DNA from: Candidatus Avigastranaerophilus sp.
Lineage (GTDB): Bacteria > Muiribacteriota > Ozemobacteria > Ozemobacterales > Ozemobacteraceae
NCBI GenBank assembly: GCA_045599645.1
Contig: JAZRWI010000089.1
Span: forward strand, 33,657-97,656
Reading direction: 5' to 3'
Length of the DNA stretch: 64,000 nt
This document shows, one piece after another, positions 4,078 to 44,474 of this stretch. The notes under the pieces were generated by a model, which saw nothing but the letters and a program-made list of their open reading frames with translations, made no database searches and had not been told where the DNA came from. The position numbers and the translations under genes are program-made. How positions within the stretch are numbered: the first letter of the stretch is position 1; the number at the start of each line of letters is the position of its first letter.

Positions 4078-5370
4078 ATGGAAGAAAAAACCTTAAATAG
4101 CGAAAATAGAATCCTTCAGGCTATGGAAGGTAAGCTTTATGTTTTCCCTGAATCTAGAAACTATTTAATTATTATTTCAGTGGTAATAGTTGTTTTTGCA
4201 TTATGTGTCTGGGGGGTAAAAGGAAAAGTTAATGAGTATGTAAAAGGTGTCGGCATTATTACAACAATGACAAACTATACGCCTGTAACAAGCTTTTGCG
4301 ATGGGCTGATTGAATATCTTGATGTAAATGAAGGCGATGAAGTTATATGTGGACAAACTATTGGAAAAGTTTTTTCTATTGATGTCTATATTGAAGTGAT
4401 GAATATAAGAAAAGAGTTAGATATACATAATAAAAGACTTAAATTTTATCAGACCTCTCTTGAAAATATAAAAATTCGGAAAAAAGAAGTTTCTGATGCT
4501 AGCGTACGATATATTAAGGAAAATCTGGCTCGAATTAATAACCAGATAAAATGGTTCAGTGCTTATATAGAAAAATTGGAAACTGTTTCAAAGCGTGGGG
4601 CTGTTCCCTCTAATCTTGTTGCTGATACAAAATTTAAATTTGATTCAATCTTAGAAAATAAAGCTTTGCAGGAATTTGCTTTGATTGAGAATAAGCTGAA
4701 ATTAGAAGAACAATTGGCGAATTTGGATTTTGAATTAGACAAATATCAGGTGGAATTAGAAGAAATAAAAATAAAAGCCGAGGAAGCTTATTCTAAGTAT
4801 GTTAGATCAGGATATATTTTTGCCAGGGATACTGGTAAGGTTGCAGAAATTACAGCACCAAAAGGCGATCAGGTAAAAAATGGTGATACAGTATTATATT
4901 TGATAACTGAAAAAAATGATGATGCGCTGGTAGAAGTAACAGCTTATTTTCCCTTTAAGGATGTAAGAAAAATAGAAAAAGGTATGAAGGTCAGAGTTAT
5001 TCCTTCATATATAAAATTTGAACACGACGGTGCCATTTTGGGAACAGTTGTCTCTATAGATAGAGATGTTGTATCTGACAAAAAATTACAGCGATTGTAT
5101 AAAAGTGAAACTTTGTCACAGCAATTATTTTCACAAAACGATAATTTACCAGTAAGAGTAACTATTTTTCTTGAACAGAACAGTAAGTCTCCTAGCGGTT
5201 TTAATTGGACAACAGGGATTGGACCAGAAATTAAAATAAAGGATAATACATTATTTTCTGCACTGGTTACTGTTAATCAGGTTGCTCCATTTGAGCTTTT
5301 GTTCGGTAAAATTCAAAAATCTGTATTTGGTAAAAATGAGCAAATGACTTTGGAGAAAATTAATGAATAG
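4078..5370 (+). CDS. HlyD-family membrane-fusion / secretion adaptor protein
   Basis: 430 aa. It has an N-terminal TM anchor (LIIISVVIVVFALCVWGV). Lipoyl-like hairpin motifs (GLIEYLDVNEGDEVICGQTIGKV and GKVAEITAPKGDQVKNGDTVL) flank a long coiled coil. It overlaps the next ORF by 8 nt. Confidence 0.85.
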   Translation: MEEKTLNSENRILQAMEGKLYVFPESRNYLIIISVVIVVFALCVWGVKGKVNEYVKGVGIITTMTNYTPVTSFCDGLIEYLDVNEGDEVICGQTIGKVFSIDVYIEVMNIRKELDIHNKRLKFYQTSLENIKIRKKEVSDASVRYIKENLARINNQIKWFSAYIEKLETVSKRGAVPSNLVADTKFKFDSILENKALQEFALIENKLKLEEQLANLDFELDKYQVELEEIKIKAEEAYSKYVRSGYIFARDTGKVAEITAPKGDQVKNGDTVLYLITEKNDDALVEVTAYFPFKDVRKIEKGMKVRVIPSYIKFEHDGAILGTVVSIDRDVVSDKKLQRLYKSETLSQQLFSQNDNLPVRVTIFLEQNSKSPSGFNWTTGIGPEIKIKDNTLFSALVTVNQVAPFELLFGKIQKSVFGKNEQMTLEKINE

Positions 5371-11048: not shown

Positions 11049-11489
11049 TCATTTGCTCTTCACTTGCCATTTCCCGCGGGACCAGGTTGCGTAGTCTGTG
11101 GGTTCAGCATTGCCAACCCTGTGCTGAATGATGCCGCGGCCAATGATATAGGTTCCGCAGGTGCAGACCTTGGTGCCCTTGCCTGCAACATACGGAAGGG
11201 CATCCTTGGCGTCTTTTAATTCGTTTATTGGTTTATGACCGCATTTACATGCTGGCAGCGGCTCCTGGCCGATGAAAAGCTGTCTTTCAAGCCAGGCAAT
11301 ACCATGAACTACGAACAGCAAAAGAGCAGGTCCGATTAAAATACCGGCATAGCCCCAGTATTCCCCGTATCTGGAAAAAAACACATCACCGAAATAGCCT
11401 GCGATTATAAGCAGGGCCAGGGCAACAGTTTCCATTTTAAGGCCACCCTTTTTGTTGTTTGTAATTCTTGGTTTCATTGGTTTATACAT
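11049..11489 (-). CDS. Small membrane protein with C-terminal Cys cluster (hypothetical)
   Basis: 146-aa ORF. The more likely start is ATG 11435, preceded by an AAGGGTGG RBS. It has two TM helices and then a CKC...CTC cluster. Its 3' end contains copy B of the 45-bp repeat. The overlapping track ORF 11016..11219(+) is a shadow. Confidence 0.55.
   Translation of the reverse strand: MYKPMKPRITNNKKGGLKMETVALALLIIAGYFGDVFFSRYGEYWGYAGILIGPALLLFVVHGIAWLERQLFIGQEPLPACKCGHKPINELKDAKDALPYVAGKGTKVCTCGTYIIGRGIIQHRVGNAEPTDYATWSRGKWQVKSK
11074..11118. repeat. 45-bp direct repeat, copy B (partner at 3886..3930)
   Basis: Matches copy A at 43/45 positions. It lies inside the 3' coding end of 11049..11489(-). 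Confidence 0.9.
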
Positions 11490-11490
11490 A

Positions 11491-11952
11491 CTTGGTATCG
11501 AAGTGTAGCTAGTAAAGCTTTAAGCTCCAAGCTTTAAGCTTTAAGCTCCAAGCTTTAAGCTCCAAGCTATAAGCTATAAGCTTTAAGCTCCAAGCTATAA
11601 GCTATAAGCTATAAGCTCCAAGCTATAAGCTATAAGCTTTAAGCTATAAGCTCCAAGCTATAAGCTATAAGCTATAAGCTCCAAGCTATAAGCTATAAGC
11701 TTTAAGCTCCAAGCTCCAAGCTATAAGCTATAAGCTTTAAGCTCCAAGCTATAAGCTATAAGCTCCAAGCTATAAGCTATAAGCTTTAAGCTATAAGCTC
11801 CAAGCTTCAAGCTTTAGGCTTCCGGCTTCCAGCGGCCTGCTTTCTCGGCCAAGAGCTAAGAGCCAGCAGCCAAAAGCTTATTGCAACAAACCTTATACCC
11901 ACCTGGTATCGAAGCACTGTCCTGCTTCAAGCTTATAGCTTCCAGCTTCCTA
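11491..11952. repeat. Composite element: conserved 30-bp left end, about 45 tandem heptamers (AAGCTNN), about 100-bp core, short second array
   Basis: 11491-11520 is identical to 18126-18155. The array at 11514-11838 uses the units AAGCTTT, AAGCTCC and AAGCTAT. The core at 11832-11930 (..GGCCTGCTTTCTCGGCCAAGAGCTAAGAGCC..AAACCTTATACCCACCTGGTATCGAAGCACTGTCCTGCTTC) is homologous to the cores at 18306-18409 and 18614-18708. Confidence 0.95.
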
Positions 11953-12384
11953 CTACTTCAGGCTGTCAAGGTGTTGCTTGATTGCGTCGCGCATTGGTTT
12001 GAAGAATGCTGTAGTATCAAGCTTGGGTTCGATTCTTTTCCAGACAGAGTTAATCGGGTAAACAACACTGCCGGTTACTTCGTCTACGAGAGCAGGTTCA
12101 CTGCCGAACTGATCTTCAATGATCTGCCAGCCAAAGCCGAATTCAGCTTTGAGAAGCTCACCGAAGAGGCTGCCAAAGCAGTTGGCCATTTCCTCATTGC
12201 CAGCCTTAGTAGCAGATTTATCTTCTGCCCAGGCCTTGAAAACCTTATCAAGATTTTCAAAATTAACAGGACCTTTTACCATGCCGGAATAGGAAGCGTA
12301 AATTTCGCGGCCCTTAGTGGTATTGGCTGCTATTTTTGTAAGTTCCTTCGGGCTTAAACCCAAAATTCTTGGTGTCATATTCAT
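11953..12384 (-). CDS. Hypothetical cytoplasmic protein (possibly DUF3806-like)
   Basis: 143-aa ORF with balanced composition. The opposite-strand ORF 11881..12357(+) has an unnatural Cys/Phe-rich composition and is taken as a shadow. The family assignment is from memory only. Confidence 0.6.
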   Translation of the reverse strand: MNMTPRILGLSPKELTKIAANTTKGREIYASYSGMVKGPVNFENLDKVFKAWAEDKSATKAGNEEMANCFGSLFGELLKAEFGFGWQIIEDQFGSEPALVDEVTGSVVYPINSVWKRIEPKLDTTAFFKPMRDAIKQHLDSLK

Positions 12385-12484: not shown

Positions 12485-13693
12485 ATGGCAAATTCTAAAG
12501 TTATTTTAATCGTTAACTGCGGTAGCTCTTCTCTTAAGTATGCTCTTATCAGAATGCCAGAACGTGAACAGCTCGGCAAGGGTCTTGTAGAAAGAATCGG
12601 CCTTGAAATGGGTCATCTTGAACAGAAGGCTAATGGTAAGGTTTATGAAGTTAATCAGAAGATTGAAACCCACAAGGTTGCAATGGAACTGGTTATGAAG
12701 GCTATTACCGATTCAGAAAAGGGTATCATCAAGGATACTAAGGAAATCGCAGCTATCGGTCATCGCGTTCTCCATGGCGGTAAGTATTACTATGATTCAA
12801 TCATTGTTAATGCTGATGTTAAGAAAGCTATTAAGGACTGCTTCGAACTCGGTCCATTACACAACCCGGCTAACCTCATGGGTATCGAAGCTTGTGAAGC
12901 TGCAATGCCAGGCGTTCCAAATGTTGCCGTTTTTGATACTGCTTTTGGTATGTCAATGCCGGAAAAAGCTTACCTCTATGCTATTCCTCACGAATATTAC
13001 GAAAAATATTCTATCCGCCGCTACGGTTTCCACGGAACCAGCCACAAGTTTGTTTCCAACGAAGCTATCAAGTTTGCTAACCTTGATCCCAAGAATGCAA
13101 AGGTTATCGTTTGCCACCTCGGCAACGGCGCCAGCGTTTCTGCTTCAATCGGTGGTAAGTGCGTAGATACTTCTATGGGTCTCACTCCTCTCGAAGGCCT
13201 TATCATGGGCACCAGAAGCGGTGACGTAGACCCGGCAGTTCTTCAGTTCATCATGAACAAGGAACACCTTACTGCTGACCAGATGCTCAACATCCTCAAC
13301 AAGAAGTCTGGCGTTCTCGGTATGAGCGGTGGAGTTTCCAGCGACTTCCGTGATGTCGGTAAGGCTAAGGCTGAAGGCAACCATCTTGCTGAAGTAGCTC
13401 TTGATGCTTTCATTTACAGAGTTGTTAAGTATGTTGGTGCTTACACAGCAGCAATGAACGGCGTTGACGCAATCTGCTTCTGCGCTGGCGTTGGTGAAAA
13501 TGACAAGGCTGCTAGAAAGCAGATTTGTGAACACCTGAGCTATCTGGGTGTTAAGATTGATGATAATGCAAATGATATCCGCGGTGAAAGAAGAGTTATC
13601 TCTGCTGCAGATTCTAAGGTTAAGGTTATCCTTCTTCCAACAAACGAAGAACTTCAGATTGCTATCGATACCTTCGAACTTACTGGTAAGTAA
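12485..13693 (+). CDS. ackA: Acetate kinase
   Basis: 402 aa with hallmark motifs ILIVNCGSSSLKY, GHRVLHGG, YGFHGTSH and LPTNEEL. An AAAGGAA RBS precedes the start. A strong terminator follows. Confidence 0.97.
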   Translation: MANSKVILIVNCGSSSLKYALIRMPEREQLGKGLVERIGLEMGHLEQKANGKVYEVNQKIETHKVAMELVMKAITDSEKGIIKDTKEIAAIGHRVLHGGKYYYDSIIVNADVKKAIKDCFELGPLHNPANLMGIEACEAAMPGVPNVAVFDTAFGMSMPEKAYLYAIPHEYYEKYSIRRYGFHGTSHKFVSNEAIKFANLDPKNAKVIVCHLGNGASVSASIGGKCVDTSMGLTPLEGLIMGTRSGDVDPAVLQFIMNKEHLTADQMLNILNKKSGVLGMSGGVSSDFRDVGKAKAEGNHLAEVALDAFIYRVVKYVGAYTAAMNGVDAICFCAGVGENDKAARKQICEHLSYLGVKIDDNANDIRGERRVISAADSKVKVILLPTNEELQIAIDTFELTGK

Positions 13694-16572: not shown

Positions 16573-17547
16573 TTATTTTCGAGAAAAAACAACGGCTTGT
16601 TTTATAGAGGCTAAAATAATACTGACTACTCTTGGCTGTAAATAAATATCGGGAAGTTTGGACTTACTATATTGATATTTTGTTGAGTTGGTAAGTTTTG
16701 TGAGTAAATCAGTAAAGTAGCGTTCCCAACTGAAATAGTTATTACTATTAATGTAATCAGACGGATTCATGAGTATATTATCCAGGTCTTTATCTTCAAA
16801 AAGTTTCGAAGCTAAGATTAACCATTCAAAAGACTCTGGTAAATATAATTTAATGTTTTTATTTCCAATAAGTTTAACAATACGATCTATTTCAGAACCA
16901 AATGCTGCACCATCAGCAATAATCAGGGTGCCTTTATCATTCTGACTATCAAGCAAATGGAATATGTTTGCTTTACCCTTAGCAGATTCACAGTCTATTG
17001 CATTTTGTTGGCAAACAGCAGAAAAAAAATCATTTCCGGAATTTGAATCTTCAGTTATTATTTTTTCTGGGATTATAGGAACAGACAAAAATCTTTCATT
17101 GGAATAAATCTTATAAAATTCGTGATAGGTCTGGTTTAAATAATTATATTTTCCAGAATTTTTAATGCCGTATATTTCATTAACACTGTATGGCAACGAA
17201 TGTAAGCTTTCTCTGGTTACAATAACATAGTAATTGTCTGTATTTTTTATACAATTAGCAAAATCGTGGGAAGAAACAAAATAATTACCTTCATCAATAA
17301 ACACAATGCTATCAGAGATTAAGCCCAGTTGTTTCTGCCAGTTATTACCATTTATTACTGCACAGGTTTTGTCACATATTAATTCGATACCACTTTCTAT
17401 ACCGTTTTCAGAGTATTCGCGAATCATATCAACTAAAGAGGTTTTGCCTGTTGCACTGTTGCCCTGAATTATTGTAATGTTTCGCCTTAGTTCAAAATCA
17501 TAGCGTAAGCGTTTACTACGAATCGATATTTTATGAATGCCTTTCAT
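16573..17547 (-). CDS. Compact P-loop NTPase with C-terminal TOPRIM/DUF4435-like region (OLD/PARIS-like, tentative)
   Basis: 324 aa. Walker A is QGNSATGKTS and Walker B is IVFIDEG only about 45 aa later. The C-terminal half has acidic motifs (IITEDSNSGND and LIIADGAAFGSEID) reminiscent of TOPRIM. The fold assignment is inference. Confidence 0.6.
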   Translation of the reverse strand: MKGIHKISIRSKRLRYDFELRRNITIIQGNSATGKTSLVDMIREYSENGIESGIELICDKTCAVINGNNWQKQLGLISDSIVFIDEGNYFVSSHDFANCIKNTDNYYVIVTRESLHSLPYSVNEIYGIKNSGKYNYLNQTYHEFYKIYSNERFLSVPIIPEKIITEDSNSGNDFFSAVCQQNAIDCESAKGKANIFHLLDSQNDKGTLIIADGAAFGSEIDRIVKLIGNKNIKLYLPESFEWLILASKLFEDKDLDNILMNPSDYINSNNYFSWERYFTDLLTKLTNSTKYQYSKSKLPDIYLQPRVVSIILASIKQAVVFSRK

Positions 17548-17555
17548 AAAATCAC

Positions 17556-18032
17556 CTATACGTATCTGCCAGCTATTGGAATTAATTCTTCCATGCTTGT
17601 AACAATCTGATTTGTATTAAGTAATTTAACCTTGAATTTTTCAGGACCAAAATCCATCAGGTGGCGTAGGTTTATTACAATATCTTTTTCTTTGGCTATC
17701 TTTAATAGCCATTTGGCACAGTTATCGCCACAGGTTGAAGCATTAAATACTTTGTCCGGTTCGTTAAAAATAAGAATCAAAGTTTTAACACCACCAGACA
17801 ACGCCAAGGGCGAAATCTTGCCTAATACTGGACTATCGATAACAGCGTTCCCTAACACAGTAGATTTATCAACATCAAGTATCATTTTTTTGGCAAAATC
17901 GTTTGTTATCCAAGAATCTTCATAAGTATTCTTGAAATATACAGACGTATTAAAAACAGCCTCAGGCATATCGCCATAAAAGATGCTTAACATCAAATTA
18001 CCGCCTTTTTCAGATATCAATAGTATAGCCAT
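17556..18032 (-). CDS. DUF4869-like small protein
   Basis: 158-aa ORF. The probable true start is ATG 17993 (MLSIFYGDMPEA..) with an AAGG RBS. It contains LSGGVKTLILIFNEPD, which resembles an ABC signature. It ends 8 nt before the downstream ATPase gene. Confidence 0.7.
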   Translation of the reverse strand: MAILLISEKGGNLMLSIFYGDMPEAVFNTSVYFKNTYEDSWITNDFAKKMILDVDKSTVLGNAVIDSPVLGKISPLALSGGVKTLILIFNEPDKVFNASTCGDNCAKWLLKIAKEKDIVINLRHLMDFGPEKFKVKLLNTNQIVTSMEELIPIAGRYV

Positions 18033-18125
18033 TTATACAATAATTATCAACAGCGAAATGAAGGCATATAGTTTCGTTTTTAACAAAAGCACCATAAAAA
18101 CAGTTTTATGAATTTATCTTACTTG

Positions 18126-18846
18126 CTTGGTATCGAAGTGTAGCTAGTAAAGCTTTAAGCTTTAAGCTATAGGCTCCAAGCCCCAAGCCCCAAGCCCCAA
18201 GCCCCAAGCCCCAAGCTATAAGCTATAGGCCCCAAGCCCCAAGCTATAAGCTATAGGCCCCAAGCCCCAAGCTATAAGCTATAGGCTCCAAGCTTCTAGC
18301 TTCAGGCTTCCGACGGCCTGCTTTCTCGGCCAAGAGCTAAAAGCTAAGAGCCAAAAGCCTATTGAACCAAACCTTATACCCGCTTGGTATCGAAGCACTG
18401 TCCTGCTTCTAGCTTCAAGCTTCAAGCTTTAAGCTATAGGCTCCAAGCTCCAAGCCCCAAGCTCCAAGCTCCAAGCTCCAAGCCCCAAGCCCCAAGCTAT
18501 AAGCTATAGGCCCCAAGCTCCAAGCCCCAAGCTATAAGCTATAGGCTCCAAGCCCCAAGCCCCAAGCTATAAGCTATAAGCTATAGGCTCCAAGCTTCTA
18601 GCTTCTAGCTTCAGGCTTCCGACGGCCTGCTTTCTCGGCCAAGAGCTAAAAGCCAAAAGCCTATTGAACCAAACCTTATACCCGCTTGGTATCGAAGCAC
18701 TGTCCTGCTTCTAGCTTCAAGCTTCAAGCTTTAAGCTATAGGCTCCAAGCCCCAAGCCCCAAGCCCCAAGCTCCAAGCTCCAAGCTCCAAGCTATAGGCT
18801 CCAAGCTTCTAGCTTCTAGCTTCTAGCTTCTAGCTTCAAGCTTATC
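18126..18846. repeat. Composite element: three heptamer arrays separated by two copies of an about 100-bp core
   Basis: The left end at 18126-18155 equals 11491-11520. The arrays lie at about 18149-18310, 18406-18612 and 18705-18846 and use the units CTTTAAG, CTATAAG, CTATAGG, CTCCAAG, CCCCAAG, CTTCTAG and CTTCAAG. The cores lie at 18306-18409 and 18614-18708 and differ by a 7-nt indel. Confidence 0.95.
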
Positions 18847-18987
18847 TTCGATAGGCTCGGATGCGAACCTGTTTTTTAGGGTTAATTATTTGTACTATTA
18901 TGCCGATGATTAGACCGATGTACTCTGAAAAGTCGAAAACTGTGCTTTCTAACCAAAGCAAATTGAGTTGCCAGGCAGCATGGCGCA

Positions 18988-21900
18988 ATGATTGAGCTAA
19001 TACTGATGGATATTTGCAGGCACAAAATGCAGAAAGACAAAAAATATAGAATTAGAGCGGACATTAAGAAAAGAGCAATGGCTCTGGCTGTTGCTTTGTC
19101 TGTTTTTCTCCAATCCACAACTGTTTCTTTTGCTGCAGCTCCGACTTTTGGTGCCGGTTCAGGCACCAATAGCACTGCAGCGGGTGTTAACAATACTGCT
19201 GACGGTGCAAATAGCACTGCTGTAGGTTTGGGTAACACGGCAAATGGTTCGCATAATGTTGCTGTTGGCTCAACTAATAATGCCGATGGAACCTATACCG
19301 CTGCACTAGGAACTTATAACAATATTAATGGCTATGAAAGTAACGCAATCGGTGACGACAATAATGTTACTGGTTCCCATACAAATGCAATAGGTTCCCG
19401 AAACACCACTGATGCTAATAATAGCAATGCTATAGGGTCATACAATAAAGCAATGGCTGAAAATAGCAGTGCTTTTGGTTACAAGAATACCGCTAATGGT
19501 GAAAACAGTGTGGCTTTCGGTTTTGCTAATCTGGCTGAGATTGGTAGTTCTACGGCAATAGGTGTCTCAAATACTGCTAATGGCGATGAAAGTAGTGCAC
19601 TAGGTTTTTCCAATATTGCTACGGGTAGTTTAAGTTCTGCTATTGGTGCTGAAAATATTGCTGACGGTAATTACAGTAGCGCCTTTGGTGGTCATAACAA
19701 AGCTAATGGTATTCTAAGTAACGCCTTCGGTTATTTTAACGAAGTAAATGGCTATACTAATGTTGCTATGGGTTCCAACAATACTGCTTCAGGTTCCTAT
19801 GCCAGTGCCATGGGAACATTTAATAAAATCTATTATGGTCATGAAAGCAATGCAATAGGTGATGATAATACTGCCAGTGGTACTCGTACTAATGCTATCG
19901 GTAGTTATAACCAAACTTATGCCAATTATAGTAATGCAATAGGTACTCAGAACAACACAAATGGAGAATATGCCAGTGCCTTTGGTGCAGAAAATACTGC
20001 TGGTGGAGAATACAGCAGTGCTTTGGGTTACCACAATACTGCATCGGGCTATTTTAGTTCTGCTGTGGGTAGCGAAAACAAAGCCTATGCCGATTATGGC
20101 TCAGCAATAGGTGTTTATAATTATGTAAACCAAGAATCTGCTAGTGCTTTGGGTTACAAAAATACTTCTTCAGGTCTTGAAAGCAGTGCTATGGGTGCAG
20201 AAAATACTGCTTCAGGAGAAACTAGCAGTGCCATTGGGAATAAGAATAGTGCTGAGGGTGTGAATGCAAGTTCTGTTGGTGTAGAAAATACTGCTGCTGC
20301 TTTCAGTAGTGCTGTTGGTTATTTTAACAAGGCTGTAGGTGGAAATAGCTTTGCTTTCGGTGGTTATAACGAAGCCAATGGAAATTTTAGCAGTGCTTTT
20401 GGTATTGGCAATGATGCTTTTGGCCGCGATAGCACTGCCATGGGCAGTGAGAATGCTGCAACAGGTAATAAGAGTTTGGCTATTGGGTATGCCAACAATA
20501 GAGAGTTTATCCCTATACTTTCCATCTTATCGCCTGTTGATGCCATTGATACAGGTGAAAATAGCACCGCAGTAGGCTATGTTAACGTTGCTATCGGCAC
20601 AAATAGCAGTGCTTTGGGTTATATGAATAGAACCGAAGGTGAAAATAGCACCGCAGTAGGCTATAAGAATTCCTCAGCCGGTCTAAGAAGTAGTTCTATT
20701 GGTTATAATAACGTTGCTAGTGGCACAAACAGTACCGCGGTCGGTTATTCCAACAATGCACATGATTCTATGAGTGCTGCAATGGGTACGGGCAACGAAG
20801 CGATAGGCGAATTTACCAGTGCCATTGGATCTAGCAATTACGTTAAAGGCTATGAAAGTAATGCTATTGGTGATGACAATAATGCTTTGGGTATGAATTC
20901 GAATGCTGTCGGTAGTCATAACGAAGTTTATGACAATAATAGTAATGCAATAGGTACTGGGAACTATATCGAAGGTGAAAACAGCAGTGCTTTTGGTACT
21001 GAAAACGAAGTAATCCTCTCTAATAGCAGTGCTTTCGGTTTGAGTAACAGTGTTTCAGGGGAAAAGAGCAATGCATTGGGTTATAAAAATGAGGTTCTTA
21101 CTAATGATAGCAATGCTATAGGTAGCTTAAATAAATCTAAAGGCGGCCTTAGTAGTGCTATTGGTTATTCTAATGAAGCTTCTGGCTATATGGGCACCGC
21201 TGTCGGTTATGGTAACTCAGCTTTTGCTAATGGAAGCAGCGCTTTGGGTAATGCAAACCAGGCAAACAGCTATGAAAGCAGTGCCATTGGCGCTAAAAAT
21301 ATAGCAAAAGGACCTCAAAGCAGCGCCTTTGGTGCTTCAAATACTGCATTACTCTCCTACAGCACAGCTTTGGGTTATAATAATATTGCTAATGCCGAAT
21401 ACAGTAATGCTTTTGGTAACGTAAATAGAGCTAATAGTGATTATAGCAGCGCGGTAGGTGTTGGCAATATAGCTAATGGGTATTTCAGCAGTGCCTTTGG
21501 GGCCAACAATATTGCAGAAGGGGACTACAGCAATATTTTTGGGATTGATAATGAAGCTTGGGCAGAAAATAGCACCGCAGTAGGCTATGTTAATGTTACT
21601 AGCGGTGCAAATAGCAGTGCTTTTGGTGCAGAGAATGCCGCAGGTGGTGATTACAGCACTGCAGTTGGTTATAAAAATGAGGTTACGAATAAGCACAGTA
21701 TTGCTTTGGGTAGCTTGAATAGTGTTGCAGCTATGCAAAGTAGTGCTATCGGTTATAAAAACGTTGTTTCGGCTTATGAAGGTACTGCTGTTGGTAATTA
21801 TAATGAAGCAAGGGACGTTTCAGCTGGTGCTTTTGGTTATTCTAACAAGGCTATAGGTGAAGAAAGCTATGCTTTCGGTGGTTATAACGAAGCTCATGGA

Positions 21901-24900
21901 GGTCTTAGCAGTGCTTTTGGCTATACAAATATAGTTAAAGGAGAATCCGGCAGTGCTTTTGGCTATACCAATACAGCTAATGGTGACTATAGCAGTGCTT
22001 TTGGTTTTTCTAATACTGCTGAAGGAGAATCCGGCAGTGCTTTTGGTAATTCTAATATAGCTAATGCCCTTGAAAGCAGTGCCTTCGGTTTTAACAATGT
22101 TTCTGAAGGAGAATCCGGCAGTGCTTTTGGTAATTCAAATAACGCTTCGGCATTGGGCAGCAGTGCGTTGGGTAATGCAAATAAGGCTTCTGGTGAGAAT
22201 AGCAGCGCAGTAGGTACAAACAACGTTTCTATGGGAGTGGAAAGTACTGCTATAGGTAATTTTAACGAATCTAAGGCGGAAAGCTCCAGTGCCGTTGGTT
22301 ATGGCAATATTGCTACTGGTTTGAGCACTGTGGCTGTTGGTGCTTACAACGAAGCTATCGGGACTGACAGCATTGCTCTTGGTAAAGACAATATCAGCTA
22401 TTTGGAAAATAGTGTCGCTATTGGTTTGTCAAATCAAGCATTTGAGGAAGATTCCAGTGCCGTTGGTGGCTATAATAATGCTTTGGGCGATATCAGTAAC
22501 GCCTTTGGTAATACTAATAATGCCTTAGGCGATTTCAGCCAGGCTTTCGGTGGGTGGAACATAGCTTCAGGCAGCAGCAGCACTGCTTTTGGTATGAGTA
22601 ACTATTCTGGTGGCGATTACAGCGTGGCTATGGGCTTCGGCAACAACTCAGCTTACGATGAAGACGATTTTGTTGGTGGCGTTATAGCTACCTATGCTTC
22701 AGGTCATTTAAGCACCGCAGTAGGTATTAACAACGTAGCAACTGGAGCTCGAAGCATAGCTGTTGGTTTCCAGAACTTCTCAGATGCTGAATCAAGCAGT
22801 GCAGTCGGTTATAAAAATACCGTAGCAGGCGATGCTAGTAATGGTTTCGGCAGTTTGAATGAAGTTAGCGGCGACTACAGTAGCGCTGTTGGTTATCAGA
22901 ATGCTCTTAATGGCGCAAACAGCAATGCTTTCGGTCTTACAAATGATTTGACAGGTGAATATAGCAACGCTTTTGGTGCAAACAATACAGTTAATAACGA
23001 CTACGCTACTGCTATTGGTACATGGAATGACGCTTCAGGTGAATATAGCAGCGCTGTTGGGTATTCTAATACTGTATCAGATTCTTATAACAGCGCTTTT
23101 GGCTCTAACAATATAGTTTCAGAAAACTATTCCAGCGCTTTTGGTTATCAAAATACTATTTCTGGCGGTTCTAGCAACGCTTTGGGTTATAAAAATACAG
23201 TAAGTGGTATTTATAGCAATGCCGTAGGTGCTTATGATTATGTTGGCGGGAATTATAGCACAGCTATTGGTTATGGCAACAATAGCGAGCTTAATTCATA
23301 CTGTTTCCCTACTTCTCTTATTGATTCTGGTGACTATAGCAGTGCAATAGGCTTTAATAATATTTCATCCGGTGAATACAGCAGTGCTTTTGGTAGTGAA
23401 AACAAAGCTACAGATGGTCAAGCCAGTGCTTTTGGGCATGCCAATGAAGCTACTGGTTATGAATCCAGTGCTTTTGGCGCTTATAATGAGGCTCCAGCCG
23501 ATTTCGGAAATGCGTATGGTTATTCAAATATAGCTTCGGGTGAAGACAGTAATGCTTTTGGTGATTGTAACGAGGCTTCTGGCGATTTTAGCAGTGCTTT
23601 TGGTTATGATAATAAAGCTATTGAAGAAGGCAGTAATGCTTTCGGTTATGGGAACCAGGCTAATGGAGCTTATAGCATTGCTCTGGGTGCAGAAAACCAA
23701 GCAAATGCCGATTACAGCGTAGCCATAGGTTATCAGGCGGTTTCAACAGAAGAAAATACCGTTTCCTTTGGTCATAGCATAGGTGACGCTAAGCCTTATG
23801 GAACCTACAGCGATGAACTTAACAGCAGGCTTGTTCATGTTGCTTCAGGCACAGCGAATACCGATGCGGTAAACTACGGTCAGGTAAAGAGCGGCTTTGC
23901 TTCAGCTACCTATAATGCTTCAACAAAGAAACTGACTCTTAAATCAATTGACGGCACAAGCAGTGAACTGATAATTTCCAATGACGGTGGAGATCTTGAT
24001 CTTTCACTTATTAAAAACAGCCTTGGTCTTCTTGATGATAAGCCAAACACCATTAACAGCAGCGGATCTATTGCAATCGGTTCCGAAAATACTTCCGGGG
24101 TTGCCGGTAAGCGTTCAATAGCTATAGGTATTGCCAACTCTTCAACAGGCAGCTATTCTGTTGCTCTTGGTTCCCAAAATGATGTCAGCGGTTTGAATGG
24201 CACTGTAGTGGGACACGAAAACACTTCTAATGGCGCATACAGCAATGCTTTTGGCTACAACAATACTGCATCAGGCAATGAAAGCAATTCCATAGGCTCC
24301 AATAATCTTGCTTCAGGAAACCAGAGCAGCGCTTTTGGTTATGAAAATGTTGCTGTTGCCACTTTAAGCAATGCCTTTGGTTATGACAACTATGTAACAG
24401 GCGAAAGCAGCAGCGCTTTTGGCGTCAGCAATACCGCAACAGGCACAAACAGCAGCGCTTTTGGCTACAATAGCCATGCTGACGGGTATAGAAGCTCTGC
24501 TTTGGGGTATAACAACCTTGCTGGTTCAGCAAACACTATAGCTATTGGTAGTTCCAATATTGCCTTTTCAGAAAGCAGCATTGCCATTGGTGTATCAAAT
24601 ATTGCTTCCGGCGCTTCCAGCATAGCTATTGGCGCCGATAATAAATCTAATGGCGAATCCAGTGTGGCTTTTGGTAGTGGTAATATTACTAATGCAATCT
24701 ACAGCGTGGCTTTTGGTGGCTGGAATGTAGCCTCTGGCACATTAAGTTCTGTCTTTGGCGTTGACAACATTACAGAAGGCCAGCATAGTGTAGCCCTTGG
24801 TGTTGGTAATAATGCCAAAGATTACAATTTTGACGATCCGTCTGCTGGTATTGTAACTACCTATTCGTCTGGTGAAAGAAGTACCGCTGTTGGGGTTAAC

Positions 24901-27900
24901 AACGTAGCTACCGGCACAAGAAGCACTGCTGTCGGTTACCAGAACTTCTCTGATGGCGATTCAAGCACTGCTTTCGGTTACCAGAACTATGCACTGGGTA
25001 AAAACAGTAGCGCGTCTGGTAATGGTAATATTGCTTCTGGAAGCTACAGTAATGCCTTTGGTTCTAAAAGCAAGACCTCCGGTAGTTATAGCAGTGCCTT
25101 TGGTTATTCTAATGCCGCAACAGGCACAAATGCCAATGCTTTTGGTAGCAATAACAATGTATCAGGAAATCAGAGCAGCGCTTTTGGTGTCTTTAATGCT
25201 GTTACTGCTGGTTCAAGCGGTGCCTTTGGTTTTGATAACAGGGCTTATAGCGACAGAAGTAATGCTTTCGGTTATCAGAATACCGCTTCTGGTTCTCAAA
25301 GCAGCGCTATGGGCTTTAAGAACATAGCTGTTGGTGATAACAGCAGTGTCTTTGGTTTTGAAAACTATGCTACAGGTCCGAACAGCCTGGCTTTCGGTTA
25401 TCAGAACCTTACTGATGCTGAAAAGACTTCTGCTTTCGGTTTCCAGAATAGTGCCCTTGGTTCCGGCAGTGTGGCCTTTGGTCATGCAAATAAATCTATT
25501 GGTGAAGACAGTAATGCTGTCGGGTCTGACAATATTGCAACAGGCACTAAGTCTAGTGCTTTTGGTTATTCTAACAAATCAGAAGGTAATGACAGCTCAG
25601 CCATAGGCTACGACAACTATGCAAAAGCTGAACATAGCAGTGCTTTTGGTAGCGATAACGTTGCAACTGGCACTAAGTCAAATGCATTTGGTTATAGTAA
25701 CTATGCTGATGGTGACTATAGCGCTGCTTTTGGTACCGGCAACTATGCCATAGGTAGTAAAACTACTGCTATTGGTCATTCCAACATCACTCTCAGTGAC
25801 TACAGCACTGCTGTTGGTTATAAAAATACTGCTAATGGCACAGACTCAGTTGCAGTTGGCTATAAAAATACTACTAATGGCACAGATTCAGTTGCTGTTG
25901 GTTACCAGAATACTGCTTCTGAAAGATATGATTCTGCAGTTGGTTATAAGAATACAAGCAGCGGTGCTTACAGCTCTACATTTGGTAATGCAAATACAGC
26001 CTCTGCCAGAGGCAGTAATGCAATAGGCTATCGTAATATCGCTGAAGGTCAATACAGTAGCGCATTCGGTGCAGAAAGCCATGCCATAGCCAATGGTAGT
26101 CTTGCTCTTGGTTATCAGTCTGTTGCGAAGGATGTTAATACTGTTTCCTTCGGTCATGCAGCCGATGATCTTGATGTTGACGGCACAGCCTATGGCACTG
26201 ATAAATACAGCAAGCTTGTTTATGTTGCTTCAGGTTCTGCAAATACCGATGCTGTAAACTACGGCCAGATAAAGAGCGACTTTGCATCAGCAACCTATAA
26301 TGCAGCAAATAATAAGCTCGTTCTGAAATCTGTAGACGGCACTACCAGTGAACTGACCATAACAAGTGATGCTGTAGATAATGATTTGTCTTTAATCAAA
26401 AATTCCCTCGGCCTGCTTGATGCTTACCCGAATACCATTAACAGCAGCGGCTCTATAGCTATCGGTTCTAGAAATGTTTCCGGAACATCAGCAGATACTG
26501 CAATCGCTATTGGTATTGGTAATAAGGCTAATGCTGATAAAGCTATCGCTCTTGGTTATGAAAACGAAGTCAGTGGTTCCTCTGGTACTTCATACGGACA
26601 CAACAATGTTGTTAGCGGCAATAATGGTCTAGCCGTTGGTGATAAGAATCAGGCTAAGAGTGACTATAGTAGTGCTGTTGGTTATGAAAACATAGCTTCA
26701 GGTGCAAACTCCACCGCTTTGGGCAGAACCAGCAAGGCTCTTAGTCAATATGCTACAGCTGTCGGTTATAACAATACCGCCTCTGGTAATAGCAGTAATG
26801 CTGTTGGCAAAGGGAATTCGGCTTCGGCTGACAATTCTAATGCTTTTGGTAACAGTAATACTTCTTCTGGCAACAACAGTAGTTCATTTGGTAATGACAA
26901 CTCAGCCTTAGGTTGGGATAGTATCGCTATGGGTAATAAGAACCAGGCTAGAAGTGATTATAGCGTCGCTATTGGTTATGAAAACATAGCTTCAGGTGCA
27001 AGCTCCACCGCTTTGGGCAGAAGCAGCAAGGCTCTTAATCAATCTGCTACAGCTGTCGGTTACAATAACACTGCTTCTGGCAATAGCAGCGCAGCTGTTG
27101 GTTTTGGCAATCAGGCTCTTGGTTCAAACAGCGGAGCCTTTGGTAGAGGCAATACCGCTTCAGGTTCTTTGGCTAACGCTTTTGGTTACAATAACTTAGC
27201 TTCTGGCTCAGATACTACTGCTTTTGGTAATGGTAATCAGGCTACTGGTGGTGCCAGCAACGCTTTTGGTTATCATAACACCGCTTCTGGCAATAGCAGC
27301 ACAGCAATGGGTTCTGGTAACACTGCTTCAGGCAGTGTCAGCACTGCTGTTGGTTATGGTAATATAGCTTCTAATAGCTATAGCAGTGCCTTCGGTTATC
27401 AAAACAAGGCCTACGGCCAGGGAAGCAGTGCTCTTGGTTATGGCAACCAGGCTCTAGGTACGGATGGTGCCGCTGTTGGTTTTAATAATATAGCTTCTGG
27501 AAGTAATAGTAGTGCTTTTGGCGTTAGCAATATTGCTTCCGGTTCTGGAAATGCTGCTTTCGGTAACAACAACAAAGCTTTGGGCGGTGGCAGTGATGCT
27601 TTGGGCTTGGGCAACACTGCTTCAGGTAACAACAGTAGTGCAATAGGCACTGGTAATACAGCTGCCGGCACATATAGTGTTGCCATGGGCTATAGTAATA
27701 CTGTAACAGGTCAGGGCAGCAGTGCTGTTGGTTGGACAAATACTGTATCCGGTCAGGATAGCAATGCCTTCGGTTTCAGGAATGAAGCTCTGGGCGTAAA
27801 CAGCAATGCTTATGGTAAGATGAATAAGGCTCTTGGTTCAACAAGCAGTGCATATGGTTATGAAAATACTGCAACAGGTTCAAACGGTAGCGCTTTTGGT

Positions 27901-30900
27901 TTTTCAAATGACGCTTTCGGAGCTGGCAGTAATGCTTTCGGTTATGACAATACTGCAACAGGTTCTAATAGCAGTGCCTTTGGTTACCAGAACTTCTCTG
28001 ATGGTAATTACAGCACTGCCCTTGGCTATAAAAACAAGGCTTTAAGTCAGTCCACTACAGCTGTTGGTTATGGCAATAATGTTACAGGCAATGAAGGCAG
28101 TGCTTTTGGCTATAGCAATACAATTGAAAGTGCTGGTGCCACAGCTGTGGGGCATGTTAACTCTGCCCTTGGAATGGGTTCTAGTGCTATCGGTAGTGGT
28201 AATACCGCTAATACTGCTGGTACCACTGCTGTTGGTCAGAACAATAGTGCTTCTGGTAGTAGTGCAAATGCCATTGGTAATGCCAATACTACTTCAGGCA
28301 CTCGCAGCAATGCTTTTGGTAGTGGCAACCTTGCCTCTGGTGAAGGCAGCAACGCTTTCGGTATTGATAATAAGGTCACTGGCTCTTATGGCAGTGCTTT
28401 TGGTTATAGTAATAAATCCAATTCAAATAGCAGCGCCATCGGTTATTTTAACGAAGCAAACGGTATCTCTGCCAATGCCTTTGGTTACCAGAACAAGTCT
28501 GGTGGATGGTATAGCAGCGCTTTCGGTTTTGCCAACATTGCTTCAGGTGAGAACAGTGTTTCCTTTGGTTATAAGAATGATTCTTATGGCAATAACAGTG
28601 TGGCTATGGGTTACACTAACTCATCTCTAGCTGCTGATACTGTTGCTGTCGGTTTCTTCAATGAAGCATCAGTAGCCAGCAGCACGGCAATGGGTCTCAG
28701 CAACACCGTAGCTGCTGCCAGCGGCACAGCTGTTGGTATTGGTAATAGAGTAACAGGCGATAATGGCAGCGCATTTGGTCTGAACAACACTTTATCTGGC
28801 AAGGATGGTAGTGTTTTCGGTAAAAACAATACAGCCACAGGCGATTCTGCAACTGTTATCGGTAGTAACAATACCGGAAACGGCAATAATGGAACCGCTG
28901 TTGGGTATGGCAATCTCTCTGATAATATATATGCTAGTGCCATTGGTTCTTGTAATATTGCAGATGGCGAAGAAACCAGCGCTTATGGTTTCAGTAACCA
29001 GGCTAGTGGTGATGGCAGCAATGCTTTCGGTTCCTATAATAGTACAAATGGTTATTATGCCAGTGCCTTTGGTGATTCGAACGTTTCCAGTGGCGAAGAA
29101 AGCAATGCTTTTGGTTCTTACAATAAAGCAAATGTAGATTATAGCAATGCTTTCGGTTATAGAAACATTGCCAGTGGTGTATATAGCAGTGCAATTGGTA
29201 GCCAAAACCAGGCAAAAGGTGATTATAGTCTTGCTCTTGGCTATCAGGCAGTAGCTAATAACGAAAATGAAGTTTCCTTCGGCCATAGTGCAACAGATCT
29301 TGATGTTAGCGGCACAGCCTATGGAAGTGCTAAATATAGCCAACTTACTTATGTTGCTTCGGGTGCAGCAGATACAGACGCTGTAAACTACGGCCAGATA
29401 AAGGGCGCTTATGCTTCAGCAACCTATAATGCTTCAAGCAAAAAACTGGTTCTTACGTCTGTTGATGGCACAACTAACGAACTGATAATTTCTAATGAAA
29501 GTGCTGATCTTGACCTTGATTTGATAAAGAACAGCCTCGGCCTGCTCTCTACTAATCCGAATACCATCAACAGCAGTGGTTCTATTGCTATCGGTTCATT
29601 GAATCATTCCGGTACTTCTCCAGATAAGCTTGGAATAGCTATCGGGGTTAGCAACAGTGCAACTGGCAGCGGTTCTGTGGCTCTTGGTTTCTCAAATTCC
29701 AATAATGGATATTATGCCGTAACATTAGGCAACAATAACGAAGTAACTTACTCTTATGATAGTGCTGTCGGCTATCAGAATAAGGCTTCCAATGCTTATT
29801 CAAGTGCTTTTGGTTATAACAACACGGCAAATGGTATTTATAGCAGTGCCTTTGGTGGTAGCAATACCGCTTCTGGTTATCAGAGCAGCGCTTTTGGTAG
29901 CAGCAATAAAGCTACTGGCCATTACACCAGTGCTATTGGTTATAGGAATACCGCTTCAGGTCCGAATAGTAGTGCTTTCGGTTTTGACAACACTGCTCAT
30001 GCTACTTACAGTGTTGCAATTGGTTATACTAATAACGCATGGGATAACGAAAGCAGCGCTTTTGGTTATAAAAACAATGCTTATCAACAGGGCGACAATG
30101 CTTTCGGTCATAACAATATCGCATCTGGCTCATACAGCAGCGCTTTCGGTTCTGATAACGTTGCAACAGGCTCTCATAGCAGTGCTTTTGGTTTTGGCAA
30201 CGTAACCAATGGCAGTCAGAGTTTGGTTGCAGGTTATTCAAATAAAGTCTATGGCGCTAATTCTTCTGCTATTGGTAAGTCTAATACTGTTATGAAGGAT
30301 AATTCAGTTGCTTTGGGTTCTGATAACAATGTTTACGGCAATCTAAGCAGTGCCATAGGCTATAAAAATACTGCTTATGAAATGTGCAGCAATGCTGTTG
30401 GTCAGCTTAATACTGCATCTGGCACCCATGCAAATGCTTTCGGTTCTGATAACGTCGCAACAGGCTCATATAGTAGCGCCTATGGTTATTATAACTATTC
30501 TGACGGCTCAGACAGCAGTGCTTTTGGTTATAACAACTATTCATTGGGCAATAACAGCACAGCTGTTGGTTATAAAAACCAGACCTCAGCTCTTGAATCT
30601 ACTGCTGTTGGCTCGTTAAATAAGGCTAAAGGCTCCTACAGCACTGCAATAGGTGCTCAAAACCAGGCAAATGGAAATTACAGCACAGCTATAGGCTATC
30701 AGGCTGTTGCAAATGATGACAATACTGTTTCCTTCGGTCATGCAGCTACAGATCTTGATGTTAACGGCACAGCCTATGGAACAGCCAAGTATAGCAAGCT
30801 TACTTATGTTGCTTCAGGCACAGCAGACACTGATGCTGTAAACTTCGGCCAGATAAGAGTTGCTAGAGACGGTAAGTATGTTGTAGCAACAGAAACCTTA

Positions 30901-33375: not shown

Positions 33376-33512
33376 AACTTAGGTATTAAAACTTAGGTAT
33401 TAGGTATTAGGTATTAGGTATTAGGTATTAGGGATTAGGGATTAGGGATTAGGGATTAGGGATTAGGGATTAGGTATTAGGTATTAGGGGTTAGGAGGCC
33501 CCAACCCCTAAT
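33376..33512. repeat. Heptamer array TTAGGTA/TTAGGGA plus 10-bp-stem hairpin between the two adhesin genes
   Basis: It starts directly after the stop at 33373-33375. The order is 2 x AAACTTAGGTATT, then (TTAGGTA)n, then six TTAGGGA units (GGG runs at 33431-33468), then TTAGGTA. The hairpin ATTAGGGGTT..AACCCCTAAT lies at 33483-33512. Confidence 0.95.
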
Positions 33513-33575: not shown

Positions 33576-36500
33576 ATGTTGTGCAAAAGAAAAAGAGAAT
33601 TTAATCAAAAATTCTGCTTTAAAAGGGATTTGAAGAGCAGAATAGTAGCTATTACTGTTGCGTTGTCTGTTTTTTTACAGACGACAACAGTTTCCTTTGC
33701 TGCTGCTCCGACAATAAACAATGGCTCTGGCATTGACAGCACCGAGGCTGGTGTTGATAATATTGCTTTTGGCGATTACAGCAGCTCCTTTGGCTATATG
33801 AATGTTGCAACAGGCTCGAACAGCAGCGCTTTTGGTTATAAGAATTTTTCTGATGGCAGTGGCAGCGTGGCTTTGGGCTTTTCTAATCTTGCTGCAGGTT
33901 ATTCAGCAATAGCAGTTGGTAGTGGTAATGTCGTTGAAGGCTATAACGGAACTGCTTTTGGCTTTGGGAATAAATCACTAGATGTATATAGCAATGCAGT
34001 TGGAGCTAGCAATATTGCTAAGGGCGAAGAAGCCAGCGCCTTTGGTTTTACTAACCAGGCAAATGGTGGTGGCAGCAATGCTTTTGGTTCTAACAATATT
34101 GCAAATGGTGATTATTCCAATGTTTTTGGGGATTCTAATACCGCTGATGGCAAAGAAAGCAATGCTATTGGTTATAATAACAATGCAACAGGCAATAATA
34201 GTATTGCTATAGGAAGTGGGAATACAACTAGTCTTGATTCTAGTATCGCGGTTGGGGTTTCTAATGCTGCAAGTGCTAACTATGCCAGTGCTTTTGGTTT
34301 TTCTAACTATGCAAAAGCCAGTGGTAGCAATGCTTTTGGGAAAGGCAATATTGCCTCTGGCACTTTTAGCAATGCTTTTGGTGTTGAAAACAAGGCCATA
34401 GGCAATAATAGCAGTGCGTTTGGCTCTAACAATGAAGCAGTTGGTGAAAAAAGCCTGGCTGTAGGTTACGAAAACCATTCGAATGGTTTATATAATTCTG
34501 CTTTGGGATACCAGAACTATTCTAATGGAGATAACAGCTTAGTTGCCGGTTATGGTAACAAGGCTAATGGTAAAAACAGTTATGTTATTGGTTTTCAAAA
34601 CATTGCTGATGGTGAAACAGATATTGCATTAGGTAGCTTTAATGAAGTTTATGCCACAGACACTTATGTTTTCGGTAGTTATAATTATGTTGAAGAAGGA
34701 AACAATAATGTTGCTCTTGGTGAATATAATGACATTTTATATGGCGAAAACAACACTCTGGTAGGCCATTACAATAGCGCTGCTGATGGTGATGATAATG
34801 TTGCTGTAGGTAGCAATAATAGAACAAAAGGTAATAATAATATTGCAATAGGCAATATGAACAATGCTGTAGATAACAGTATTGCAATAGGCTATCAGAA
34901 TAACTACAAGGGCTACAATAGCTCTACTCATAGACATGAATTCTATACACCTGGTGCAAACAGCACTTCGGTCGGTTATAAGAATGTCGCAACAGGCACC
35001 AACAGCAACGCTTTCGGTTATGCTAATATTTCAACAGGCGATAACAGCAGTGCCTTTGGTAATCAAAATACTGCATCTGGATCATACAGCAGCACCTTTG
35101 GTTATAATAACGCTGCTGATGGAACTTTCAGTTCTGCAATAGGGGTTGGTAATATTGCTCTTGGCACAGAAGCCTTTGCTTTCGGTAGTGGTAATGATGC
35201 CATCGGTTATATGAGCACTGCCATGGGTCATCATAACGAAGTTCCGGCCAGTTACGGCATTGCCATCGGTTACATGAATAAATCCCGTGATGAATATGGT
35301 GTTGCCATCGGTGTTTATAATGAGGCTAACGGAAACATCAGCAATGCTATTGGTGGCTACAACAGAGCCTATGGTGAACTAAGCAGTGCTTTTGGTAGAG
35401 ACAACGTTGCTTCTGCTGCAAACGCCAACGCCTTTGGGCGAAACAATAATGCAATGGGTGAAAACAGTAGCGCCTTTGGTTATAACAATACTGCTACAGA
35501 TTCCAACAGCAGTGCCTTCGGGTATAACAATACTGCCAATGGCATTAATTCCAGCGCCTTAGGTTCTTCCAATACTGTAAATGGTCAGGAAAGCACTGTT
35601 ATTGGTTATTGGTCAAAAGTTACTGGTAATGCATCCACCGTTGTTGGACGTGCTAGTAATGTAACAGGCAATAATAGCAATGCTTTTGGTTACTACAACG
35701 TTGTTACTGCTTCTTTATCAAGTGCTATAGGCAGTAGCAATGTGGCTAAGGGATATATCAGTAATGCTGTCGGCTGGAGCAACAACGCTAACGAAGAAGG
35801 CGGTCAGGCCTTTGGTGGTTATAATACAGCAGATGGTAACCGCAGCAGCGCCTTTGGTTATTGGAATATTGCTACAGGTAGTCAAAGCAATGCTTTTGGT
35901 TATTATAACAAGGTTAATAATAACAATAGTAATGCTTTTGGGAATGGCAATAACATCTATAGTAGCAGCAGCAATGCTTTCGGTAGAGCTAATACTGCTT
36001 CTGGCAGCTATTCCAATGCTTTTGGTTCCGAAAATAAAACTTATGGTAGCAATAGCAATGCTGTTGGTCATTCAAACGAATCAATAGGCTCTAAGAGCAG
36101 TGCTTTTGGTTACGATAATACAGCTACCGGCAGTAACAGTAGCGCTTTCGGGTATGCGAATAAAGCTGAGGGCTCGAACAGCAATGCTTTTGGTAATCAG
36201 AATACGGCTGGCGGTATTTATAGTGTTGCTGTTGGTTACAATAACTCAGCCATGAATGAAAAAAGCATCGCTTTTGGGTATGGCAGCATCGCATCTGCTG
36301 CTTACACTACGGCCATCGGTTATCAGAATAAGGCCATGGATTTCGGAAGTGTTGCCATTGGTTCTGGCAATGAATCATACAATAATCATACTATAACCAT
36401 GGGTAAAAATAATATTGCTACAGGCGGTGTTGCTGTTGGTAGCGATAATAAGATAATCGGGGCGATTGCTTTTGGTTCAGGCAATACAGCTACGGGCACA

Positions 36501-43298: not shown

Positions 43299-43348
43299 TT
43301 CATAATTCATAATTCATAATTCATAATTCATAATGCATAATGCATAAT
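43296..43348. repeat. Heptamer array TAATTCA/TAATGCA beginning at the stop codon of adhesin 2
   Basis: (TAATTCA)x5 followed by (TAATGCA)x2, starting with the TAA stop at 43296-43298. Confidence 0.9.
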
Positions 43349-43376
43349 TGATTGTTGATTGATTGGGTTTGGTGTT

Positions 43377-43585: not shown

Positions 43586-43664
43586 TTTAGTGCTGTTGAC
43601 GCGCCCTGCGAGGCCTTCCTCCAATTGGGGGAAGGTGGCACAGCGAAGCTGTGACGGATGAGGG

Positions 43665-44455: not shown

Positions 44456-44474
44456 CGGCTTGCTGTGCTATAAT
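44447..44474 (+). promoter_or_regulatory. Putative sigma70-type promoter with extended -10, positioned for a leaderless transcript
   Basis: TTCGAC (44447-44452), a 16-nt spacer, then TGcTATAAT (44466-44474). ATG 44481 lies 7 nt after the -10 element. Confidence 0.4.

Follow-up and report, generated by a model that had tools for sequence, protein, structure and literature searches.

A heptamer-array element upstream of a giant adhesin gene is probably one copy of a dispersed, modular intergenic repeat restricted to one bacterial lineage

Directly upstream of a gene for a giant adhesin, a non-coding block of 7-bp repeats occupies positions 18114–18853 of a 64,000-nt stretch of contig JAZRWI010000089.1 (positions 33,657 to 97,656 of the forward strand), which was analysed as a whole and is hereafter called the window; all repeat features described below are given on its plus strand. 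The adhesin gene (adhesin 1; 19027–33375, plus strand) encodes YadA_head, YadA_stalk, and YadA_anchor domains and, by these domains, the product that an earlier note on this DNA had named a probable adhesin is a YadA-type trimeric autotransporter, the same class as NadA. The open reading frame (ORF) at 33576–43298 (adhesin 2) also encodes YadA head, stalk, and anchor domains, indicating another giant trimeric autotransporter. The left flank of the block is formed by a DUF4869 gene in divergent orientation (17556–18032, minus strand). The block was examined by sequence reading of positions 17700–19300, Tandem Repeats Finder (TRF), and a unit-by-unit parse, and its 3′ limit was placed at ~18846–18853. 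A unique spacer (18854–19026) follows, and the ATG at 19027 lies 181 bp downstream of the element, in line with the distance of ~180 bp given earlier.

The sequence reading, TRF, and the parse all bore out the organization proposed in the earlier note, namely three arrays of 7-bp units with two cores of ~100 bp between them. The arrays are in register and contain 22, 30, and 19 units, giving a total of 71 units of mixed types over ~720 bp. All the unit types listed before (CTTTAAG, CTATAAG, CTATAGG, CTCCAAG, CCCCAAG, CTTCTAG, and CTTCAAG) were seen in the parse, which added CTTCAGG. The layout is box-array-core-array-core-array-degenerate box, with the modules arranged head to tail. The element opens with a 39-nt left terminal box, TTATCTTACTTGCTTGGTATCGAAGTGTAGCTAGTAAAG (18114–18152), which partially repeats the 3′ portion of the core and adds a leader type designated leader A, and which is found in near-identical form at 11482–11517. 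Array 1 (18153–18306; 22 units by TRF and the parse), with an interior made up of the 28-bp higher-order block CTATAAG CTATAGG CCCCAAG CCCCAAG, is followed by core 1 and leader B (CTTCCGACGGCCTGCTTTCTCGGCCAAGAGC...CCTTATACCCGCTTGGTATCGAAGCACTGTCCTG; 18307–18405), as delimited by sequence reading, core searches, a core alignment, and the parse. The parse placed array 2 (30 units) at 18406–18615, core 2 with leader B at 18616–18707, and array 3 (19 units) at 18708–18840, after which the element closes with a degenerate right-end box, CTTATCTTCGATA (18841–18853). Core 1 and core 2 show 0 substitutions and differ, exactly as had been claimed, by a single 7-nt indel (AGCTAAG), which core 2 lacks. 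A 17-nt core motif has four exact matches in the window, compared with 0.04 matches expected at ≤2 mismatches and, therefore, the structure is far beyond chance. The segments between the cores are low-complexity heptamer tracts of 133–210 bp with no unique spacers, which agrees with the previous statement that this is not a clustered regularly interspaced short palindromic repeats (CRISPR) array.

The core had also been described as unique, and it had been suggested that the composite may serve the adhesin locus, but neither view held. A further full copy of the core lies at 11833–11924, and a divergent one lies at ~43805–43905. The full copy is part of a sister element of the same family (11482–11959), in which the left box (11482–11517) is followed by a 45-unit array (11518–11832), the core with leader B, and three to four trailing units; this element has a 146-aa ORF on one side and a DUF3806 gene on the other, and an acetate kinase gene (ackA) is next to it. 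The divergent core is accompanied by a leader designated leader E and an array of ~74 TTCTAGC/TTTCTGGC units (43910–44447), making up a unit of 43805–44447 in the spacer between adhesin 2 and a glycosyltransferase gene.

To extend the comparison to other genomes, a two-box gapped core pattern was used across 185,579 species-representative genomes; it superseded a scan of genome contigs with the 17-nt motif, which had returned chance matches only, in unrelated GC-rich genomes. Apart from one chance match, the pattern matched a single genome, the metagenome-assembled genome (MAG) JAZUDR01, on six contigs, and nhmmer with the window core as the query detected at least 15 copies at E below 1e-4 on those six contigs. 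More copies of the core were found in contigs L127, L121, and L211. The genes flanking the JAZUDR01 cores were annotated as those of DprA, FKBP, GNAT, a GltD-like oxidoreductase, an NMT1-like binding protein, DUF3990, an MBL hydrolase, and a phosphoribosyltransferase, and no adhesin gene was among them. Some of the core copies lie between the ends of converging genes, others between the starts of diverging genes, and others behind stop codons. Thus, a search of related genomes, which had been proposed earlier as a check together with one of the rest of the genome, and a search of the rest of the window found both the core and the left box elsewhere and, because the same element adjoins the DUF3806 gene, the 146-aa ORF, ackA, and housekeeping genes of the MAG, it is not dedicated to adhesin genes. 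No copy of the core was detected in Joint Genome Institute (JGI) metagenomes, in which the sole leader match was a chance coding match, and the viral contigs scanned for the element contained no copies. In ~0.7 Mb around the PilB-like gene in ~40 related Riflebacteria/Ozemobacteraceae genomes, neither cores (nhmmer E up to 0.01) nor heptamer arrays (≥42 bp at 85% period-7 identity) were found except in JAZUDR01, although absence from MAGs is weak evidence because MAGs under-represent repeats. On the basis of these searches, the repeat family appears to be restricted to one lineage and is dispersed among unrelated genes.

The copies are built according to a common grammar. A module consists of a conserved core (TTCTCGGCCAAnAGC ... 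GCCTATTGnAACAnACCTTATAC), a short leader box, and a graded tract of AAGCTnn-type units, with several leader types occurring after CCTTATAC and before the tract (for example, CTACTTGGTATnGAAG + TGTAGCTAGTAAAG, or CACTGTCCTG). Within TTCTCGGCCAAnAGC...GCCTATTGnAACAnACCTTATAC, an alignment of 14 cores showed 27 columns without variation. The central part of the core (AGCTAAT AGCTAAG AGCCAAA AGCC) likewise consists of degenerate heptamers and is the reverse complement of AGCTnTT-type units and, hence, the core can be read as a head-to-head heptamer junction around GGCC-N9-GGCC. In the nine complete modules, which come from two genomes, the order of units in the tract is constant, being CTTTAAG, (CTTCAAG), CTATAAG(n), CTCCAAG, CTTCAAG, CTTCAGG(n), CTTCCAG(n), and then the (C/G)GGCCTG of the next core, and the unit counts vary. 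The arrays comprise 6–11 units in JAZUDR01 and 19–45 units in the window, and the distance from leader to core is 46–86 bp in the former and 170–324 bp in the latter.

Several comparisons bear on the stability of the tracts. Core 1 and core 2 are free of substitutions, yet the arrays downstream of them hold 30 and 19 units, respectively, and differ also in internal order; the one difference between the cores amounts to an indel of one unit. TRF indicated higher-order periods of 28, 35, and 42 bp in the window arrays, suggesting that their tracts have expanded in blocks. In the spacer between adhesin 2 and the glycosyltransferase gene, the window and contig L211 of JAZUDR01 have in common the divergent core and its leader as well as the flank on the downstream side (flank identity, 80–92%), and the TTCTAGC array consists of ~74 units in the window and ~9 units in L211, a contrast that is not fully secure because short-read assembly of L211 could have collapsed the array. 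The orthologous spacers, which measure 1.16 kb in the window (43299–44459) and ~0.36 kb in L211 (1178–1540), differ also in mosaic content. The left junction of the element upstream of adhesin 1 is reproduced in L129 and L130, which are short-read contigs from other samples, and this argues against an assembly artefact at the left end; both contigs end at the first heptamers, so that array length is unreadable from short-read data. When the 724-nt element was folded as single-stranded DNA, the energy was −129 kcal/mol, compared with −95 ± 4.7 kcal/mol for shuffled sequences (z = −7.3). This strong fold is due to the palindromic AGCT/AAGCTT inside each unit, and the self-pairing fits slipped-strand intermediates. 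As judged from such patterns, the heptamer tracts behave as hypermutable.

The locus upstream of adhesin 1 is not itself comparable between strains because the protein database offers no close ortholog of the N-terminus of adhesin 1 (best matches, 40–47%). A search for a second assembly of the exact locus found none, and the protein look-ups gave no exact matches to three window proteins. A clean empty site was likewise not recovered among the sequences compared, the orthologous spacers being different in mosaic content. The DUF4869 gene and an adjacent gene of ~325 aa (window 16573–18032) occur as a pair in differing contexts (contigs L121–L128), belong to a family with thousands of homologs across gut Firmicutes, and probably constitute a mobile two-gene module. 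Contigs with DUF4869 homologs (92% identity), which have other upstream neighbours and no element, were considered as empty sites and rejected because the gene pair itself appears to be mobile. The acetate kinase neighbourhood of the two closest MAGs (92–93%), also without the element, was rejected as an empty site because synteny is not conserved on that side.

Taken together, we estimate at about 60% the probability that the block upstream of adhesin 1 belongs to a lineage-restricted family of dispersed, modular mosaic intergenic repeats with slippage-prone heptamer tracts. In this best reading, the heptamer tracts may be likened to the short tandemly repeated repetitive (STRR) sequences and the modular build to the BOX elements and bacterial interspersed mosaic elements (BIMEs). 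The tracts would gain or lose units, singly or in blocks of two to six, by slipped-strand mispairing or unequal recombination, probably with the help of the palindromic AGCT/AAGCTT unit centre and its strong single-strand self-pairing, and such gain and loss would be much faster than base substitution. At the locus upstream of adhesin 1, a core-plus-array module of ~300 bp would have been duplicated in tandem recently.

The parallel with STRR-type heptamers, which had been drawn in the earlier note, fits. Like the heptamers of the STRR, Nostoc, and Xanthomonas types, the element is composed of tandem 7-bp intergenic units that occur at many loci per genome and in several unit families, of which the window contains at least five in four intergenic regions. 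To our knowledge, STRR-type arrays have no established function. The present case differs in that the host is not a cyanobacterium, that the units are of the AAGCTnn type and not the canonical STRR1–3, and that the arrays, which reach 45–74 units, form part of a module in which core and leader are conserved and the graded order of units is fixed. Intergenic heptamer simple sequence repeats (SSRs) have been described as varying extensively in length among close relatives (PMC4692102). The TAACTGA repeats of Beggiatoaceae, some Cyanobacteria, and Bacteroidetes also form intergenic and sometimes long mixed heptamer arrays (MacGregor 2015, PMC4679880) and resemble the element here in that contigs often end inside the repeats and that their phylogenetic distribution is patchy; they mostly occur, however, in sets of two to six copies, a few nucleotides upstream of start codons and in a fixed orientation (PMC4679880). 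The element here has other units, long tracts, an attached core of ~100 bp, and no consistent position or orientation with respect to start codons. Pneumococcal BOX elements, with the structure boxA-boxB(n)-boxC, and the BIMEs of E. coli are modular, dispersed, non-coding intergenic repeats with high self-pairing potential. As in the element here, conserved modules flank an internal module of variable copy number, and the combinations differ by locus. The variable module here is, however, of 7 bp and not the 45-bp boxB or a repetitive extragenic palindromic (REP) hairpin, there are no consistent inverted termini, and no REP-associated tyrosine transposase (RAYT) or other transposase was identified. 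Because there is no sequence homology either, BOX and BIME serve as a comparison of how such elements work and not as families to which the element belongs.

Some points weigh against the mosaic-repeat reading. The short arrays of JAZUDR01 may be biased or collapsed owing to short-read assembly, and the slippage mechanism is one that we infer from sequence patterns. The core is strongly conserved across the 14 copies, which may reflect either its recent spread within a single species-level lineage or selection for a function. Furthermore, heptamer arrays are present in all three adhesin-adjacent gaps compared with 1 of the 12 other gaps of at least 80 bp, in a post hoc count with small numbers made from the TRF and ORF lists, and this concentration at both adhesin genes may be functional rather than neutral.

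The same concentration is among the observations in favour of a contingency element of the phase or rheostat type, in which the gain and loss of units around both adhesin genes would tune expression via promoter spacing or 5′-untranslated region (UTR) length. We regard this as unlikely. It would be in keeping with the length instability of the tracts (30 vs 19 units and ~74 vs ~9 units) and with the YadA-type adhesins encoded downstream. In some bacteria, heptamer repeats are frequent between genes and at times affect expression (PMC4679880, bioRxiv 10.1101/2022.06.06.494920); in Nostoc they modulate the promoters of recO and recF (bioRxiv 10.1101/2022.06.06.494920), and two reports describe 7-bp intergenic SSRs as controlling HMW1A expression (PMC8262952, PMC12721329). 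The 7-bp tract of hmw1A/hmw2A in H. influenzae and the TAAA tract of nadA in N. meningitidis are, as here, length-unstable short repeats upstream of an adhesin gene; NadA and adhesin 1 are both trimeric autotransporters, and the unit is of 7 bp as in HMW. These classical tracts are, however, single, homogeneous, short, gene-specific, and set relative to mapped promoters, whereas the element here consists of mixed units in three arrays with cores, and the same element is found at unrelated genes, including loci without surface-protein genes both in the window and in JAZUDR01. In addition, a scan for promoter consensus sequences within or across the tract was negative, the array end is 181 bp away from the ATG, and no ortholog of the locus was found that could show variation there. 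Because an unstable tract lies upstream of the adhesin gene, the contingency idea is nevertheless physically plausible. An effect of tract length on adhesin expression is possible also if the block is a mosaic repeat, since a length change in the divergent gap between the DUF4869 gene and adhesin 1 could incidentally alter the 5′ UTR or the geometry of the promoter. Thus, of the earlier suggestion of a contingency, regulatory, or recombination element for the adhesin locus, the part that stands is that the tracts behave as hypermutable, whereas the specificity for the adhesin does not, and no promoter or terminator was found inside.

It is improbable, in our estimation, that the core, leader, and tract together represent a functional cis-element acting at many loci, either as a protein-binding array (nucleoid, regulatory, or cold-shock/S1-type) or as a structured non-coding RNA. 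The conservation of the core would be expected for such an element, and regulator binding has been proposed for intergenic heptamer repeats, with cold-shock/S1-type proteins suggested as binders of the TAACTGA repeats (MacGregor 2015, PMC4679880); the window encodes a protein joining DnaJ, TPR, and two cold-shock domains (47630–49021). The minus strand of the core, folded as single sequences, was modestly more stable than shuffles (z about −2.1 to −2.4). In contrast, the consensus structure by alifold amounted to −2.55 kcal/mol with essentially no compensatory changes, and the window gave no Rfam match at the gathering score, with sub-threshold miRNA or sok noise only; a structured RNA was therefore rejected for want of an Rfam match and covariation. 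No sigma-70-like promoter or intrinsic terminator was found by consensus scan inside this element or the sister element, the orientation and distance to neighbouring genes are inconsistent, and recent spread offers another explanation for the conservation, as mentioned above. A candidate sigma-70 promoter in the core (TTGCAA ... TATAGA) was rejected on its spacing of 20, and the scanner was negative for it. A tRNA remnant at the right end (GGTTCGCATCC-like motif, minus strand) was also considered and rejected, as ARAGORN found no tRNA or tmRNA. A more specific version, to which we would give long odds, is that the core and leader act as a functional "array head", with a lineage-specific factor that would recognize the core or the CCTTATAC box plus AAGCTnn, in a distributed contingency or regulatory network. 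If this were true, the genome would carry tunable spacers or binding arrays throughout, concentrated at the two giant adhesin genes, and would represent a new heptamer-based cis-regulatory system.

A non-autonomous transposable element similar to a miniature inverted-repeat transposable element (MITE), dependent for its mobility on a transposase supplied in trans from another part of the genome, is very improbable. The family is indeed dispersed, multicopy, intergenic, and lineage-restricted, and the same genome has a genuine family bounded by terminal inverted repeats (46907–47629). The earlier statement that inverted ends are absent was essentially right; the element upstream of adhesin 1 has only a weak match at its ends, where the right-end box is complementary to the left box over 15 nt at 80%, and the sister element at 11.5 kb has none. 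The terminal inverted repeats are thus not consistent, and the ends are instead direct repeats of one and the same box, with no target-site duplication definable and none seen consistently at either element. No transposase is encoded in the window, as had been observed before, and the number and composition of the modules vary as in a mosaic and not as in a discrete unit. An assembly artefact, that is, mis-joined or inflated low-complexity sequence, can hardly be credited. Short-read assemblies do break at these arrays, which marks such regions as error-prone, but the left junction recurs in independent contigs from other samples, the core, leader, and both junctions of the 43.9-kb array recur in L211, and a structured unit order is common to copies in another genome.

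With respect to the host, the PilB-like ATPase shows 97% identity to that of JAZUDR01 and then 85%, going down smoothly to 55%, across Riflebacteria/Rifleibacterium/Ozemobacteraceae MAGs, many of which are from ruminants. The acetate kinase shows 92–93% identity to that of two rumen or reindeer MAGs labelled Riflebacteria. On the basis of these two proteins (PilB and AckA), the lineage is most likely an uncultured one of gut or rumen Riflebacteria. JAZUDR01 carries the NCBI label Candidatus Avigastranaerophilus, a genus of Melainabacteria, which is at odds with the relatives of its PilB and AckA; a melainabacterial host, considered on the strength of that label, was rejected in view of these relatives, and the MAG is probably mislabelled. 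Apart from the match to the two MAGs, the acetate kinase (window 12485–13693) shows 72–77% identity to enzymes of Lachnospiraceae/Clostridia, which suggests that the gene was gained horizontally from gut Firmicutes.

Cyanobacteria, Beggiatoaceae, some Bacteroidetes, and Xanthomonas are the groups from which heptamer microsatellite arrays have chiefly been described. What is new here is that heptamer SSR arrays are packaged in a conserved dispersed module, and in an unusual host. The modules of fixed order provide an unusually clean record of tract expansion, from ~8 to 45 units within the family and from ~9 to ~74 units in the related array. Because they break short-read assemblies, such elements are invisible in most MAGs. 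They are large and fast-changing spacers beside surface-adhesin genes and, if expression depends on tract length, they could enable a gut phylum about which little is known to vary its surface.

Other heptamer families occupy the gaps that follow the two adhesin genes (33373–33495, 43296–43349, 43376–43579, and 43701–43781). The first is an array of TTAGGTA/TTAGGGA, a different unit family, with its start at the adhesin 1 stop codon, and the modules downstream of adhesin 2 (43296–43781) comprise TAATTCA (7.7 copies), three 75-bp units with ATTGAGA heptamers, and TAGGTCT (11.6 copies). The arrays at 33373 and 43296 open exactly on the TAA stops of the adhesin genes, with the stop codon being part of the first unit. 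The 75-bp unit (2.7 copies at 43376–43579; also present in contig L021 of JAZUDR01 at ~4600–4760) combines ATTGAGA heptamers with TGCTTCGACCAAG. As TGCTTCGACCAAG, when inverted, nearly matches the CTTGGTATCGAAGCA box of the family described above, this box may be a motif common to different heptamer families.

The region bounded by terminal inverted repeats at 46907–47629 is an element of ~720 bp with 28-nt inverted repeats (GCAACGGATAACAGGAT...) that are 86% complementary. It encloses a 144-bp tandem repeat (2.8 copies, 96% identical; 46935–47330), its terminal motif is found again in related contigs (L121, L123, L125, L127, and L211), and it looks like a separate MITE-like family. An intergenic tandem repeat of 23 bp (TTTTCAGCCAAATTGCCGAATGA, 3.9 copies) with a higher-order period of 46 bp is located at 62169–62285. 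Finally, runs of short hairpins that are GC-rich, have GNRA-like loops, and are each followed by TTCAC (e.g., CTGCCGCGAAGCGGCAG) are found at 15780–15990 of L121 and at 43580–43660 of the window, and these are another small repeat class in the intergenic mosaics.

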